A stretch of 64,000 nt of DNA from Pachysolen tannophilus NRRL Y-2460. Taxonomy: Eukaryota. Below, one piece after another: positions 6,993 to 39,540 of the stretch; position 1 is the first letter of the stretch, and each line of letters starts with the position of its first letter. The translations under genes were made by a program, and so were the position numbers. The stretch spans positions 537,465-601,464 of the forward strand of contig KV454015.1 in assembly GCA_001661245.1 (NCBI GenBank). The letters are read 5' to 3'. The notes beneath the pieces are model-generated. The model had not been told where the DNA came from, made no database searches, and saw only the letters and a program-made list of their open reading frames with translations.

Positions 6993-8942
6993 ATGATTTA
7001 TGGGATAACTTTGATTTGTCTTACAGGGGTGTTGTTTTTTGGTTACAATTTCTTGCTGGATCAAGGGTTTGTTACTGTTGAACAACAAGTTGGTTCAAAG
7101 TTACCAAATTTTGCTGAGGAATTAAGAAATCTCAGATGGGGTCCATTAAATTTTATACATACAACAGATACTCATGGGTGGTATGCTGGTCATATGAACC
7201 AGAGGTCATATTCTGCGGATTGGGGGGATTTTATTAGTTTCACTGAACGTATGCATGAGATTGCTGATTTCTTTGGTGTTGACTTGTTGGTGATTGATTC
7301 TGGAGATAAGCATGATGGTAATGGGCTTAGTGATGCTACAGAAGAACTCAATGGGGTATATTCTTCTAGGATCTTTGCGCAACTGAAATATGATTTGTTA
7401 ACTCTTGGGAATCATGAATTGTATGTGGAAGCGGTTAGTACTCATGAATATACCCATGTTGTTCCAATATATGGTGATGCTTATGTTTCTACTAACGTTG
7501 AATATAAATTGGATAATGGTACTTTTGTTCCATTTGGGAATGGTAAGTATCGAATATTTGAGACTAAGAACCAGAAATTCAAGATTTTAGGGTTGGGGAT
7601 TTTATTTGATTTTACACCATCAAATAATGATAAAGTTCGTATAACTCCCATTAAAAATTTAATCCAACAAGATTGGTTTAAAGAATTGTTGGAAGATAAC
7701 GTTGATTCCAACTTGGATCTTATTGTTATTGCTGGTCATGTACCAGTTTCTCGTAGTTGGGAAGAATTGGATGAACTTCACAATTTTTTAAGAAATTATT
7801 TCCCCAATTTACCAATTCAATATTTTGGAGGACATTCTCATATTAGAGATTTCACAATTTTTGATAATAAACTGTCTGGATTACAAAGTGGGAGGTATTG
7901 TGAAACTGTTGGGTGGCTTTCAATTGAAAGTTTAACAGCGAATGAATTACAATATGATAGAAAATATATTGATTTTAATATTCATTCTTTTATGCATCAT
8001 TCTAATACTACAGAATTTGATTTTTCAACTCCAATTGGAATCGGTGTAACTAAAGAAATTGCCAAGTACGTTACAGAATTAGAACTTAAGGAAAGTTATG
8101 GAGTTGTTCCTAGAAATTTCTTGGTAAATGCTTCACCTTATCCTTCAAAAGGTAATTTACTTAGTTTATTATCAGAAAAAATCTTGATTAGATTAGTACC
8201 AAAAGATAAGAGTTTAGAAACAACTGGTAATTCTAGAATTATAATCATTAACACAGGTTCTATTAGGTATGACTTGTATAAAGGTCCATTTACTAAAAAT
8301 TCGAAATATATTGTTTCACCTTTTCAAAATAAATGGAAATTAATTTCAAGTGTTCCAAGATCAATTGCAATGAAGATTGAACCCGTTTTGAATAATCAAA
8401 CATACATCTTACGCAAATGCAACAATAATGATAATGATCACGATCACAAAGTGGAACTGAGTTATTTACAACACAATCTTGATTTTTCTAATCTTTTAAA
8501 CCCAATTGATCAAGCATTTGTTAAAAAGAAAGAGAAAAGACAATTTGAAGAATGTAATTCCAATGAAGAAAAACCAAATTTATTTGATTATTTTACATTC
8601 AAGGCTCTTACTTACGGCTACGTAACAGAAGATGATATGGGATATGATGGTGATGATACCATACATAAATCGTTAAATTATTATCCATCACCAAACGTTA
8701 TTCAGAGTTATGAGCCTGGTTCAGACTTGATTACATCCCAAAACGAAATTGAAGAACTTATCGATGTGGTATACTACGACTTCATCGAGCCCTACATCCT
8801 CTTTGCAATGCGGGAGATTATCGGGAATGAAAAAGATGTTGAAGAATATATCAATAGAATCCAGTACTATAACGATTTGAACAAAGAGTATAACGTTGGT
8901 ATGTTACTACAGGGTTATGTTGAAGAAAACTGGCTGAACTAA
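6993..8942 (+). CDS. Calcineurin-like metallophosphoesterase / 5'-nucleotidase family (YHR202W-like) with N-terminal signal or anchor
   Basis: Motifs HTTDTHGW, DSGDKHDGNGLSD, LGNHELY, GGHSH and SGRYCETVGW; hydrophobic N-terminus. Confidence 0.85.
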   Translation: MIYGITLICLTGVLFFGYNFLLDQGFVTVEQQVGSKLPNFAEELRNLRWGPLNFIHTTDTHGWYAGHMNQRSYSADWGDFISFTERMHEIADFFGVDLLVIDSGDKHDGNGLSDATEELNGVYSSRIFAQLKYDLLTLGNHELYVEAVSTHEYTHVVPIYGDAYVSTNVEYKLDNGTFVPFGNGKYRIFETKNQKFKILGLGILFDFTPSNNDKVRITPIKNLIQQDWFKELLEDNVDSNLDLIVIAGHVPVSRSWEELDELHNFLRNYFPNLPIQYFGGHSHIRDFTIFDNKLSGLQSGRYCETVGWLSIESLTANELQYDRKYIDFNIHSFMHHSNTTEFDFSTPIGIGVTKEIAKYVTELELKESYGVVPRNFLVNASPYPSKGNLLSLLSEKILIRLVPKDKSLETTGNSRIIIINTGSIRYDLYKGPFTKNSKYIVSPFQNKWKLISSVPRSIAMKIEPVLNNQTYILRKCNNNDNDHDHKVELSYLQHNLDFSNLLNPIDQAFVKKKEKRQFEECNSNEEKPNLFDYFTFKALTYGYVTEDDMGYDGDDTIHKSLNYYPSPNVIQSYEPGSDLITSQNEIEELIDVVYYDFIEPYILFAMREIIGNEKDVEEYINRIQYYNDLNKEYNVGMLLQGYVEENWLN

Positions 8943-9059
8943 CATCCCTACACCACACAAAACCACACCACAACATATACTACCCAAGTCTTTGCGGCGG
9001 GAGGAGGGAGACGGGCGGTGATTGGCAGGCAGCAGACACTACTTCCCAACCCCCACTTC

Positions 9060-9150
9060 TCCCTGACTCACTCCACGACTCCGTGACTGTGTGACTGCGC
9101 TTTTATTTCCGCTTCCGAATCGGGTAAAAACCCTAAAAAAAACCCTGAAT
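9060..9150. promoter_or_regulatory. Ribosomal-protein promoter elements upstream of RPS4 (Homol-D-like, Reb1-like, Tbf1/Homol-E-like)
   Basis: TGTGACTG at 9090-9097 (reverse complement of Homol-D CAGTCACA), a variant at 9082-9089, CGGGTAA at 9121-9127, and two AACCCT(A/G) motifs at ~9129-9147. Confidence 0.5.
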
Positions 9151-9401
9151 CATATTTTTCTGCCAATTTACACGCACTTTTTTTTTCTTTTGCCAAAAAT
9201 TTTTTGTTTTTTTTTTTTTTTTTTTTTCACTTAAAATTTTTCAGAGACCAAAGCGTTAACTGTGAACAAAAAAAAAAAAAAGGAAGTAGGTAAAGGTTTT
9301 CTATATAACTTTTTTTTTTTTTTTATTTAATTTATATATATATTCTTCATATATAATTATATCTTTTTAATTGTTTCAGTTTTAGAGATTTATAGTTGAA
9401 C

Positions 9402-10503
9402 ATGGCAAGAGGACCGTATGTAAATGATGAAGATTTAAAGATTCAATAGTGGGGGAATGGAAATATTTAAAAGTATAGAAAAAGAAAGAGAACGGATTAT
9501 TACTATGTGTGAAATGATATAAGATATCACATAAACCAATGATGAGAGTAATGATGATTGTATAAGGTATTACTATGTGTGGTATCGTATGTGATACTTA
9601 CTTGTCATGATATGGATGGATATGTTGTACAGATATTTTAAATTATTTTCTTGTTCCCCTATATATTGATTGTATTAAATGATTTTTACAAATACTAACT
9701 AACTTAAAAAAAATTTTTTTTATTTATACAGAAAGAAGCATCTCAAGCGTCTCGCAGCTCCATCCCATTGGATGCTTGACAAATTATCTGGAACTTATGC
9801 TCCAAGACCGTCTGCTGGTCCACACAAGTTGCGTGAATCATTACCTTTGGTTATCTTTTTAAGAAATCGTCTTAAGTATGCTTTAAACGGTCGTGAAGTC
9901 AAGGCTATCTTGATGCAAAGACATGTTAAAGTTGATGGTAAAGTTAGAACTGATACTACTTTCCCAGCTGGTTTTATGGATGTTATCACTTTGGAAGCAA
10001 CCAATGAAAACTTTAGATTGGTTTATGATGTTAAGGGTAGATTTGCCGTTCACAGAATTACTGACGAAGAAGCAACTTATAAATTGGGTAAAGTTAAAAG
10101 AGTCCAATTAGGTAAAAGAGGTATTCCATATGTTGTTACCCATGATGGTAGAACTATAAGATATCCAGATCCAAACATTAAAGTTAATGACACTGTTAAA
10201 ATTGACTTGTCTACTGGTAAAATCACTGATTTTATCAAATTTGATACTGGTAAATTGGTCATGGCTACCGGTGGTCGTAACTTGGGTAGAGTTGGTGTCA
10301 TCACTCATCGTGAAAAACATGAAGGTGGTTTCGATTTAGTTCACATTAAGGATACTTTAGATAACACTTTTGTCACCAGATTATCAAACGTCTTCATCAT
10401 TGGTGAACCAGGTAAACCTTATGTCTCATTACCAAAGGGTAAAGGTATTAAATTAACCATTGCTGAAGAACGTGATAGAAGACGTGCTCAACAAGGTTTA
10501 TAA
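9402..10503 (+). CDS. RPS4: 40S ribosomal protein eS4, two exons (9402-9415, 9732-10503)
   Basis: ATG GCA AGA GGA CC|GTATGT ... TACTAAC (9693) ... CAG|. The spliced product begins [23 protein letters not shown], typical of eS4. Confidence 0.97.
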
Positions 10504-32970: not shown

Positions 32971-34200
32971 TTATTCAATGATACGAGTGATTAAACCTGT
33001 ACCAACAGTTTTACCACCTTCTCTGATATTAAATCTTTGACCAACTTCTAAAGGAGTTGGATGTAAAAGGGAACATTGCATTTCAACGTTATCACCTGGT
33101 AAGATTTGTTGAGAATGGTCAACATTTTCACCTTCAGGGAAAGTTAATATAACAGTAACATCTGCTGTTCTAATAAACATTTGAGGTCTATAATTTTCAG
33201 AAAATGGAGAATGTCTACCACCTTCTTCTTTTGTTAAGATATATAATGAAGCCAAGAATTTTTTATGTGGTTTAACAGTACCTGGTTTACACAAGACCAT
33301 ACCTCTCTTGATATCATCACGTTTAATACCTCTAAGTAAGATACCAGCGTTATCACCAGCCATTGCTTGATCCAATTCTTTTTTAAACATTTCTATACCG
33401 GTGACAATAGTTTTAATTGGAACATCATTATAACCAACAATTTCAACTTCTTCACCTTTTTTCAAATTACCACGTTCAACTCTTCCAGTAACAACGGTAC
33501 CTCTACCAGAAATTGAAAAAATATCTTCAACAGGCATTAAAAATGGTTTTTCTAAATCTCTTTCAGGAGTTGGGATATGTTCATCAACAGCATCCAATAA
33601 TTTCATGATAGCATCTTTACCAATTTCTGGACGTTTACCTTCCAAAGCACATAAAGCCGAACCCATAATGACTGGAGTATTATCACCATCAAATCCATAA
33701 GAAGTTAATAATTCTCTCATTTCCATTTCAACCAATTCTAACATTTCTGGATCATCAATAGTATCAACTTTATTAACAAAGACAACTAAATGTTGAACAC
33801 CAACTTGTCTAGCCAACAACAAGTGTTCTCTAGTTTGAGGCATTTGACCATCAGAAGCAGCAACAACAATAATAGCACCATCCATTTGAGCAGCACCGGT
33901 AATCATATTTTTAATATAATCAGCATGTCCAGGACAATCAACATGAGAATAATGACGCTTAGCAGTTTCATACTCAACATGAGCAGTTGAAATAGTAATA
34001 CCTCTTGCTCTTTCTTCTGGAGCCTTATCAATAGCATTATAATCCAAGAAATTGGCACCACCTTCTGTTGCTAATACTTTAGTAATAGCAGCGGTTAAAG
34101 TGGTCTTACCATGATCAACATGTCCAATTGTACCTATATTAATATGAGGCTTTGAACGATCAAAAGTAGCAGCAGAACGAGCAGATTGGAAAACAAAAGT
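32971..34200 (-). CDS. TUF1: Mitochondrial elongation factor Tu, main body; the native 5' end is not on this strand
   Basis: [43 protein letters not shown], ending [17 protein letters not shown]. Confidence 0.95.
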
Positions 34201-34409
34201 TTCCTTTTCTGGAAACTCAAAATTTTTCACCAAAAAAAAAATCATCAAAAAAAAAAATTTGGGAGTTTCTCTGCTAATAGGAACAACATAAATTGTTAAT
34301 AAATATTAAATAAAGGTATTAAATTAAATTGAATTAAAAAAGAATTTTTGTTTTTTTTTTTTTTCTTTTTTGCCGTAATTTATCTTTTTGGCTCAGGAAA
34401 AGAAGAAAG

Positions 34410-34614
34410 ATGTATCCACGTTCAGTGTTTGGTGCGGCCATCCGTACTTTAACTCGTGCTAGCAGTATGTATATAAATTTAACAAATGAGTTGAGAAATT
34501 AGTAAATTTTTTTTTTTTTTTTTTTGTTTTTGCCTTTTTGCTTTACTAACAAGTTGTTATTTATTTTTAATAGAAACTGTTTCTCCAAAAATCGTCAATA
34601 AGAGTTTGGTGTAA
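34410..34614 (+). other. TUF1: Orphan 5' gene fragment (ATG exon 34410-34464, intron 34465-34573, short exon 2) encoding a mitochondrial presequence; probably the inverted 5' end of TUF1
   Basis: A-rich context AAGAAAG-ATG; GTATGT donor, TACTAAC at 34544-34550, TAG acceptor. The spliced peptide MYPRSVFGAAIRTLTRASKTVSPKIVNKSLV* is rich in R/K/S/T/A and has no acidic residues. Confidence 0.75.
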
Positions 34615-34989
34615 CAAAACACTACCTTTAAAAGTAGTGCACTTAGCTTAAAAAAACACAAATTAACCGAAACGGGAACTATTATGTTTTGAGAACACGA
34701 CTTTCAAAATTTGAATTTTGGAAAGAAAAAACAAGATCGTGTACTAAAAGCACAATATCTTTTTCCGGAAAGTGGAGAAATTGGAAAAAAATCGTCCAGC
34801 CTCTAAACTAATATCCAGCCCCAAAAGTATTTAATTTCTCTTAGGGTCGTACAGTACATATTAAAAATACCGAAAACAGTAAAAAATTTCACTGCACTTC
34901 AAAAAGGATGTGGTGTAGTGTGTTTTGTGTTTTATTTGCTTCTTTGTTTGTTTGTTTGTTTGTTTGTTTCTAGATAGATAGATGGATTT

Positions 34990-35277
34990 ATGAGTGAATC
35001 AACTACAACGGTATTCTTAGAGACTATCCCCGGTATAGCCAATGTTTGCATAAGTGGTATTTCATTAGATCTATCAACCTCTATGTTGGTTGACATCTTA
35101 TACAATGAACATTTACCACAAGGTATCAATAGAGGAAACTCATCAATTTCTAAAATAGATGGCAAACCGGTTCTTCAATATAAATGCGTTAAAGAATTGG
35201 TCAATGGTAACACAGAATTTATCAGCTTAACACTAAGACTTCCCCTATGTCATAAAAGTATAAGGAAACCTTACTAG
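34990..35277 (+). CDS. Small protein resembling the Sde2 N-terminal ubiquitin-like fold, without the GGKGG motif
   Basis: TVFLETIPGI...LYNEHLP...SKIDGKPV...EFISLTLRLPLC recalls fungal Sde2-N. Recognised from memory only. Confidence 0.45.
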   Translation: MSESTTTVFLETIPGIANVCISGISLDLSTSMLVDILYNEHLPQGINRGNSSISKIDGKPVLQYKCVKELVNGNTEFISLTLRLPLCHKSIRKPY

Positions 35278-35529: not shown

Positions 35530-36830
35530 ATGTCGAGTCAACATAAGGATAAGCTGGACATAAATGTTCATATTGATTCGGTAGTTAATAAACTTAAGAG
35601 AAGACAAATTTCTGGGTCTTATACTGTTGCTATTGAAACATGTCAATTACTTATGAGAGTTATTTCAGCTTCACGTTGGAATCATCCAGATCAGTTAATT
35701 GATATAATACTGCAGGTTGGTAAGAAGTTGGTACAGGCTCAGCCGAGAGAGTTTTCATCGGGGAATATTGTCAGGAGAGTGCTATCTTTAATTAGAGATG
35801 AGATGAATGATGATAATGATGTTAATAATGGCAACGGCGGTAACAACAACAATAATAATAATAGTAATTATATCAATAATAGCGTTAATAATGAAAATCA
35901 ACTGATGATTAGTTCAATGTTTGCTTTGTTAACTACAAATGAAAATAAAAAAAATACCGTTAGCAATCAGCAAAATTTACAACAACAAAAATCACAAGTT
36001 TCATCTCTGTCTCTGCAATTGAAAAAAAATACACATACTCAAGATTTTAGATCAATTATAATACAAGGAATAAAAGAATTGATAGATGAGATTTCATCAA
36101 TCTCGGAGAATATCGAGACTATGAGTGTGGATTTGATCCATGATAATGAAGTCTTGTTAACTCCTACTCCAGGTTCAAAAACAGTTTTCAATTTTCTTCT
36201 GAAGGCAAGGTTAAAGAGAAAATTTACAGTCTTGGTAACAGAATGTTTCCCAAATGAAACTGAAGAAGCCCACAAATTCGCCAAGAAATTGGCTCTGCAT
36301 AAAATAGATACAGTAGTAATTCCTGATTCAACTGTATTTGCAGTAATGTCCCGTGTTGGGAAAGTTATTGTTGGTGCAAGATCAGTCTTTGCCAATGGTG
36401 GATGTGTAACTAGTTCGGGAGTCGCTGCAGTTTGCGAATGCGCAAAAGAATACAAAACACCTGTTTTTGTTGTTGCTGGCCTCTATAAATTATCTCCTTT
36501 ATATCCATTTGATAGAGATAGTTTAGTAGAAGTTGGTAATTCAGGTAAAGTCATGGAATGGGAAGATAGCCAATTAGTTGGGAATTGTGAAGTTACAAAC
36601 CCTCTTTTTGATTACGTTGTTCCTGAAAATATTGATATTTATATCACTAACGTGTATGTATCCATTTACAAATTAAAATTGAAAAAAAAAAAAAGTTGTT
36701 CAAATTTTTGTTTTCTTCATTTACTAACAATTAATCCTAATTATTTTTTTTTAGCGGTGGATTTTCTCCAAGTTTTATATATAGAATAGTTCTAGATAAC
36801 TATAAAGCTGAAGATGTTAATCTAGAATGA
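35530..36830 (+). CDS. GCD7: eIF2B beta subunit, two exons (35530-36653, 36755-36830)
   Basis: AQPREFSSGNIVRRVL, VFAVMSRVGKVI, GLYKLSP. A GTATGT...TACTAAC...TAG intron restores the expected end ITNVGGFSPSFIYRIVLDNY. Confidence 0.93.
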
Positions 36831-38540: not shown

Positions 38541-39540
38541 TTACTGCTGATTAATACCACTAACATAATAAACAATCTCACAATTCTCATTCTCATCTAA
38601 ATAGCAATGCAATACTAATGCTTCCATCTCACTAATGATTAACACAACATTTGAAGATAATTCACAGATATTGGCTCCTAATTTCCAGTCTCGAAGTTTA
38701 ACCATGACATTAATTGGTTCATCTCTATCCCTCTCTCTTCCTCTGATATTAGTTTCATCTTCTTGATCCTCGTTGCTATTATTGATTTGCTGCACTGGTA
38801 GTCTTTCTCTCCAAGATGCTGTTATTTTTCTTGTATCTTCATTTATTGTTAGTCCCAAGTATCCATTCTTTGTAGCTGCAATGTTTAAATACTCTGCTTT
38901 TTTATATCGTTCTACTCTTTTGAAAAGAGATACAATATCTCTATTTAACTTCATAAATACATCCACATTACTCAACTCTGGTTCTCTAATTCTTTCGTCA
39001 CTTTCTTTTTTCAATAATCGCACAGGAATACGAAACGTATGACTTATACTTGAACTCACGCTCACATGCTCATTATAAAAAATAGATAAAGTAGCCAACG
39101 ATTTTGATGCTGAAATTACTTGTTTAGATCCTCCCGTTCCATCAGCATTATTTGCTGAAGGGTTCTTCCTCTGAAGTCTAATCGATAATCCATACGAGTT
39201 TGTACGTTCAAAGTTTTTCAATACTTGATACAATGGCTCGATATTGATCTCCATTGAGATAGTATTATCTCTTATAGATTCTACCTCGTAGATATCAAAA
39301 ATCTCTTGGGATAATTTACACCATACTTGTGGCTCATTCAAAGAAGCTGAAATAATATGTAAATTCTGCGGAGTAAATCGTAATATACAAAATTTACGAA
39401 GACTAATGATAGCACCCAAAGTATCTAGAAATTAAAAATAATGTTAGCACAATTTTTATACAATCCGAAGAATAGTTAATAATAAATGAAAACTTACTTC
39501 TCAAAGATTCTGTAGATGCTGTTGATATCTTCAACTTCAT
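38541..39540 (-). CDS. MEC3: 9-1-1 checkpoint clamp subunit Mec3/Hus1, two exons (39540-39498, 39424-38541)
   Basis: A GTAAGT...TGCTAAC...TAG intron (39497-39425) gives MKLKIST...NTLGAIISLRKFCILRF; EPQVWCK and HTFRIPVRLL..ERIREPEL. Confidence 0.82.

Follow-up and report, generated by a model that had tools for sequence, protein, structure and literature searches.

In a 64-kb stretch of DNA from the yeast Pachysolen tannophilus (64,000 nucleotides, called the window below), TUF1, the gene for mitochondrial elongation factor Tu (EF-Tu), is divided between the two strands. Its body is read on the - strand, and a unit that looks like its promoter, first exon and intron adjoins it on the + strand, about 200 nt away. 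Does the yeast really carry TUF1 in this form, or is the arrangement a product of the assembly? An earlier reading of the sequence alone had offered three explanations, namely a mis-oriented assembly piece, a fixed inversion of the species and an invertible ON/OFF switch for mitochondrial translation. Of these, only the first is supported by the contigs of public sequencing runs analysed here.

TUF1 in the window

The body of TUF1 ends on the - strand with the stop codon at 32971-32973. Its ORF matches all three EF-Tu domains of Pfam (PF00009, E 9.4e-64; PF03144, E 6.7e-24; PF03143, E 9.5e-34) and shares 84-87% identity with named yeast TUF1 or mitochondrial EF-Tu proteins; the closest relative overall is P0002 (439 aa), at 90% identity. 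Upstream, the EF-Tu frame remains uninterrupted up to the ATG at 34245, which yields an ORF of 424 aa, listed as entry P0001 in the protein collection. The leader of this ORF consists of 27 residues, three of them acidic and three basic, and has a hydrophobic moment (muH) of 0.42. The N-terminus of the 424-aa ORF is promoter DNA read on the wrong strand, and the TUF1 body of the window is left without a usable presequence.

None of the 408 codons in the TUF1 body (32971-34195, - strand) is CTG, so TUF1 is uninformative on how this yeast reads CTG.

On the + strand, exon 1, counted as 55 nt (18 codons and one nucleotide) from the ATG at 34410, encodes no acidic residue and has its amphipathic peak at IRTLTRASKTV (muH 0.81). 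The segment behind it, 34465..34573, carries the GTATGT, TACTAAC and YAG signals of a budding-yeast spliceosomal intron. As arranged in the window, the stub of exon 2 that follows reads 12 further codons to a TAA at 34612-34614 (+), a stop that is spurious. The 5' flank contains a 7-bp stem, AGTTTCC-N6-GGAAACT, at 34198-34217 and, on the - strand at 34229-34219, the word TGAAAAATTTT, which we take to be the one named RRPE. The frame from ATG 34245, the + strand exon, the intron, the stub, the stem and the TGAAAAATTTT word had all been described from the sequence before, and each of them is indeed there.

Both strands of the 64-kb window were scanned with the intron pattern GTATGT...TACTAAC...YAG, which gave five matches at three loci. 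At two loci the intron (145 and 101 nt) is followed by the expected exon 2 on the same strand, whereas the intron next to TUF1, alone among the three, has a mere stub behind it and is thus the odd one out. At 109 nt, the intron next to TUF1 is comparable in length to the other two, and the exon-intron unit to which it belongs is more than a chance match.

Table 1. Features of the TUF1 locus (window coordinates)
Feature	Position	Strand	Basis
TUF1 exon 2, main body (mitochondrial EF-Tu)	32971..34195	-	Pfam GTP_EFTU, D2, D3; identity to yeast TUF1; contigs
Spurious N-terminus of the 424-aa ORF (ATG 34245-34243)	34196..34245	-	Leader with 3 D/E, net charge 0
TUF1 5' flank (promoter and 5' UTR)	34196..34409	+	Hairpin, RRPE-like word and A-run 34247-34257 inside; read directly
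412-bp piece, inverted in the window when compared with the contigs of four runs	34196..34607		Opposite-strand joints
TUF1 exon 1, ATG + 18 codons + 1 nt (MYPRSVFGAAIRTLTRAS), start of presequence	34410..34464	+	Direct sequence reading
Predicted spliceosomal intron, 109 nt	34465..34573	+	GTATGT 34465, TACTAAC 34544-34550, TAG 34571-34573
TUF1 exon 2, first 34 nt	34574..34607	+	Contigs continue directly into the EF-Tu body; frame kept
Remaining intergenic DNA, TUF1 to the divergent + strand ORF at 34990	34608..34989		Contigs -34312..34196, then +34608..34906

Orientation of the locus in sequencing runs

Reads were assessed as Logan contigs of public runs over positions 33800-35000. Of the 18 runs listed for the stretch, none is recorded as RNA. 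Five public runs contain 0.85 of the sampled words of the stretch, and four of them were compared: X1, X2 and X4, derived from sample S1 of study P1, and X5, derived from sample S2 of study P2 and bearing a different organism label. Contigs leave 34313-34376, 34496-34540 and 34907-35000 uncovered (A/T tracts and a short-period repeat at 34947-34966). In the covered parts of the 1201 bases, no substitution relative to the window was found in any of the four runs, which therefore come from the same organism.

All four runs contain the same two contigs across the locus. One reads the + strand from 34541 to 34604/34607 and then descends on the - strand from 34198/34195 through the TUF1 body to 33800 and beyond. 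The other reads the - strand from 34312 to 34196/34199 and goes on along the + strand from 34605/34608 to 34906. At neither joint do any letters intervene between the two sides, the shorter of which measure 64-118 letters, and contig depths are 60-174. Both opposite-strand junctions, 34195-34607 and 34196-34608 (or 34198-34604 and 34199-34605), are thus present in X1, X2, X4 and X5. Since both join opposite strands in every run, the window carries 34196-34607 turned round, exact to the base.

The breakpoints share three nucleotides only, AAA at 34196-34198 and TTT at 34605-34607, which are reverse complements of each other. Because these ends fit either side, the piece may equally be given as 34199-34604. 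The flip is base-perfect and reciprocal, with no base lost or gained. Its ends lie away from the homopolymer tracts at which contigs break (34313-34376 and 34496-34540). Contigs crossing 34195/6 or 34607/8 in the manner of the window number zero in the four runs, where rare forms could hide, as contigs drop rare variants. X1, X2 and X4 have three contigs each and X5 has eight, five of which are 31-mers in an A-run; all end or turn at the joints.

A single base-level difference exists in the contig-covered parts, and it sits inside the flipped piece. The A-run at 34247-34257 is 11 long in the window and longer by one A, behind 34246, in each of the four runs. Such a disagreement in homopolymer length is a further pointer to the assembly.

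In all four runs, the contig of about 180 nt over exon 1 (34377-34495, between T-tracts) has a mean word depth roughly half that of the adjacent contigs (91.9 against 149-174, 33 against 60-64, 54 against 103-116 and 41.5 against 101-109). The flanking homopolymers, by their effect on short contigs, are the probable cause.

The restored gene

The piece was turned round computationally and the intron removed. In the collinear form so obtained, exon 1 splices in phase 1 to 34574, and the 34 nt up to 34607 enter the EF-Tu frame at 34195, the restored junction codon being TTT. The flipped and spliced coding sequence stays open for 437 codons down to the normal stop, giving an EF-Tu of 437 aa, compared with 437 aa in P0005 and 439 aa in P0002. 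Without splicing, the collinear frame upstream of exon 2 reaches a TGA 82 nt up without passing an in-frame ATG, and hence the intron is needed. The consensus signals together with the reading frame suggest that it is spliced as predicted.

The restored leader comprises 40 residues before the conserved FDRSKPH, with 7 K/R, no D/E and a muH peak of 0.81. Leaders were compared in 86 of 119 other homologues, those having an FDRSKPH-type landmark. Of these 86, 79 contain no D/E, and 80 carry a net charge of +5 or +6. In length, the restored leader falls within the range of homologues, 26-61 residues. A basic, acid-free presequence is found in the collinear form only and is missing from the ORF of the window, whose leader had already been called acidic and implausible, rightly so in view of its three D/E residues and net charge of 0. 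At its start, M-Y-P-R-S-V-F, the restored leader is similar to those of several relatives, which begin x-P-R/K, and P-R/K occurs within the first 12 residues of 17 of the 86 homologues.

The true 5' end of TUF1 is formed by the ATG exon and the intron of the + strand, which the window shows inverted. The link between this unit and TUF1, claimed from the sequence, holds, because in all four runs contigs connect the unit with the TUF1 body in collinear order, and splicing yields an in-frame product whose leader is basic and acid-free. The further claim that flipping restores an in-frame gene proved correct as well, but not in the placement of the ends. Three junctions had been proposed; the third is two bases off, and the GAAACT and GTTT options are wrong. 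The true joint is 34195-34198 / 34604-34607, and its local motif differs from the proposed NKSLVFQSARS.

Inverted repeats around the joints were searched with a seed of 6 and a minimum length of 8, and 171 inverted pairs were recovered in 701 nt. The 25 longest are nearly all pairs of an A-run with a T-run; none of them straddles both joints, and the sequence beyond the joints is dissimilar. An imperfect inverted repeat had been suggested for the ends of the segment. It does not rise above chance, is not located at the joints and is not among the 25 longest of the 171 pairs; part of it is created by the false junction. This repeat was rejected as a substrate for recombination, the real joints being elsewhere and short inverted pairs being so abundant.

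Origin of the inversion

In all likelihood, the inversion seen in the window is a mis-oriented piece of assembly. The genome would then carry an ordinary collinear TUF1 made up of promoter, 55-nt exon 1, 109-nt consensus intron and exon 2. The 412-bp piece 34196-34607, which extends from the promoter through exon 1 and the intron to the 34th nucleotide of exon 2, would have been inserted backwards, splitting exon 2 and giving rise to a false ORF of 424 aa whose start lies in promoter DNA. Independent data from two samples of two studies disagree with the assembly at either end of this piece. That these samples, otherwise identical to the window, hold only the collinear form favours an artefact, and so does the exactness of the reciprocal flip, which is as expected of a misplaced piece. 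Read-derived contigs support the collinear orientation only, which indicates an assembly error rather than biology, and we infer that assembly or finishing, rather than an event in a cell, produced the flip. For both samples compared, the contigs refute an inversion fixed in the species. The interpretation given in the sequence-only reading is thus partly supported, since the link to TUF1 was right and the readings as a switch or a species inversion were not.

A real, one-off inversion private to the sequenced clone or strain seems unlikely to us. It would cut the TUF1 body off from the promoter, the presequence exon and the intron and produce a respiratory-deficient or leaky allele, which yeasts able to do without mitochondrial translation could carry. 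The arrangement does sit in gap-free sequence (no N in 64 kb), the 424-aa ORF survives with an ATG of its own, and clones might truly differ. However, both samples, taken from separate studies and matching the window in all covered bases bar one homopolymer A, show the collinear form only, and the surviving leader is acidic with a net charge of 0, unlike those of 79 of the 86 homologues. Repair of two breaks with no base lost or gained and with 3 nt of A/T identity would moreover be unusual. A further idea is that the TUF1 body is expressed from ATG 34245 or from an unrecognised - strand exon, the + strand unit being an independent small intron gene of 31 codons. In the window this unit indeed has its own ATG, intron and stop, but in the contigs the stop at 34612 is not behind it and the unit enters the EF-Tu frame directly. 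The leader of the window's ORF lacks import character, and the unspliced frame above exon 2 has, as described, no in-frame ATG before the TGA 82 nt up. We give this idea almost no credence. An upstream - strand exon for TUF1 was looked for in 34100-35000 (-) and rejected, as this region has neither GTATGT nor TACTAAC, only the weak look-alikes TATTAAC and TACTAAT; given the collinear form in the contigs, such an exon is also unnecessary.

A reversible element, acting as an ON/OFF switch on mitochondrial translation by flipping promoter, exon 1 and intron, is very improbable. In its favour, the inverted segment contains just what the gene needs to be switched on, and the two arrangements mirror each other exactly. 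The OFF orientation occurs in the contigs of none of the four runs, both ON junctions being passed unbroken (a rare form could hide in contigs), and the crossover points have AAA/TTT in common and no inverted repeat. A Pfam scan of the seven ORFs between 28824 and 39254 matched Zn_clus, ATG101, EF-Tu, IF-2B, Aminotran_5 and Hus1, with one ORF remaining without a match, and no recombinase family among them. From the way contigs are built, comparable levels of both forms should end the contigs at the breakpoints; here they run through, which argues against a switch. A heterozygous inversion was rejected by the same reasoning, the contigs passing through the joints rather than stopping there. We think it equally improbable that a few cells, or the clone that was sequenced, truly have the orientation of the window, the 412-bp piece flipping between an ON form, present in all contigs, and an OFF form captured in the assembly. 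In that case a yeast nuclear genome would contain a DNA-inversion switch that acts on mitochondrial translation and needs no long inverted repeats. To our knowledge, no such switch is known for a nuclear yeast gene.

Comparison with known systems

With the piece in its collinear orientation, TUF1 of this yeast is an ordinary member of the yeast family (YOR187W family), and its predicted 5' intron is its only notable trait. It has the same three EF-Tu domains as P0005 of Saccharomyces kudriavzevii, P0004 of Lachancea lanzarotensis and P0008 of Kluyveromyces lactis, at 84-87% identity. The restored product equals P0005 in length and likewise has a basic, acid-free leader before FDRSKPH. A difference lies in the predicted 109-nt intron after codon 18, as the ten aligned relatives are single ORFs with import-type leaders. 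TUF1 of S. cerevisiae is not known to have an intron.

As in other small mis-orientations of assemblies, the conflict with independent reads occurs at either end, no base is out of place in the flip and a homopolymer within the piece differs in length. The case differs from them in that the ends of the flip are not at the low-complexity tracts where short-read contigs break. Inverted repeats mark the crossovers of the invertible promoters fimS and hin, the invertons of Bacteroides and the FLP/FRT system of the yeast 2-micron plasmid, all of which have a recombinase of their own and show both orientations when sequenced. What the TUF1 locus has in common with them is that the orientation of a promoter-bearing segment decides downstream expression. 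In contrast to these systems, the joints of the TUF1 piece share 3 nt of A/T, no recombinase is found in seven ORFs and all four runs show one orientation.

Among the matches listed by a literature search on yeast TUF1 or mitochondrial elongation factor Tu, none dealt with an intron or an inversion of TUF1. Metagenomes scanned with the 55-nt exon 1 gave no match and hence no further independent copy.

For the biology of the organism, the inversion is most likely unimportant, as it has a normal TUF1 with a 5' intron. It matters for annotation, because gene callers run on the assembly yield a 424-aa EF-Tu with a false N-terminus. The corrected TUF1 model has two exons and encodes 437 aa including a mitochondrial presequence. 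The assembly holds at least one flipped piece of 412 bp.

Neighbouring genes and introns

The window has a G+C content of 31%. Divergent from TUF1 and sharing an intergenic region with it, an ORF of 95 aa (34990-35277, +) follows a run of GTTT/GTTTGTTT repeats at 34947-34966, just upstream of it; the ORF has no Pfam match. On the other side of TUF1, a protein of the ATG101 family (PF07855; 31424-32638, +) contains long Asn and Gln runs. In a Hus1-like ORF (38541-39254, -), the Pfam profile is matched only from position 75 of 288, and the missing N-terminal part may be encoded in an upstream exon.

Two further genes of the window account for the other consensus introns. In an RPS4-like gene (8899-10500, +), the intron at 9587-9731 precedes exon 2, and three nested GTATGT sites (8899, 9416 and 9587) all fit the intron pattern. 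A gene of the IF-2B family (PF01008; 35530-36900, +) has its consensus intron at 36654-36754, near the 3' end. Unspliced, it reads as an ORF of 419 aa with a false tail, and spliced it gives 399 aa with a plausible C-terminus, ...ITNVGGFSPSFIYRIVLDNYKAEDVNLE.
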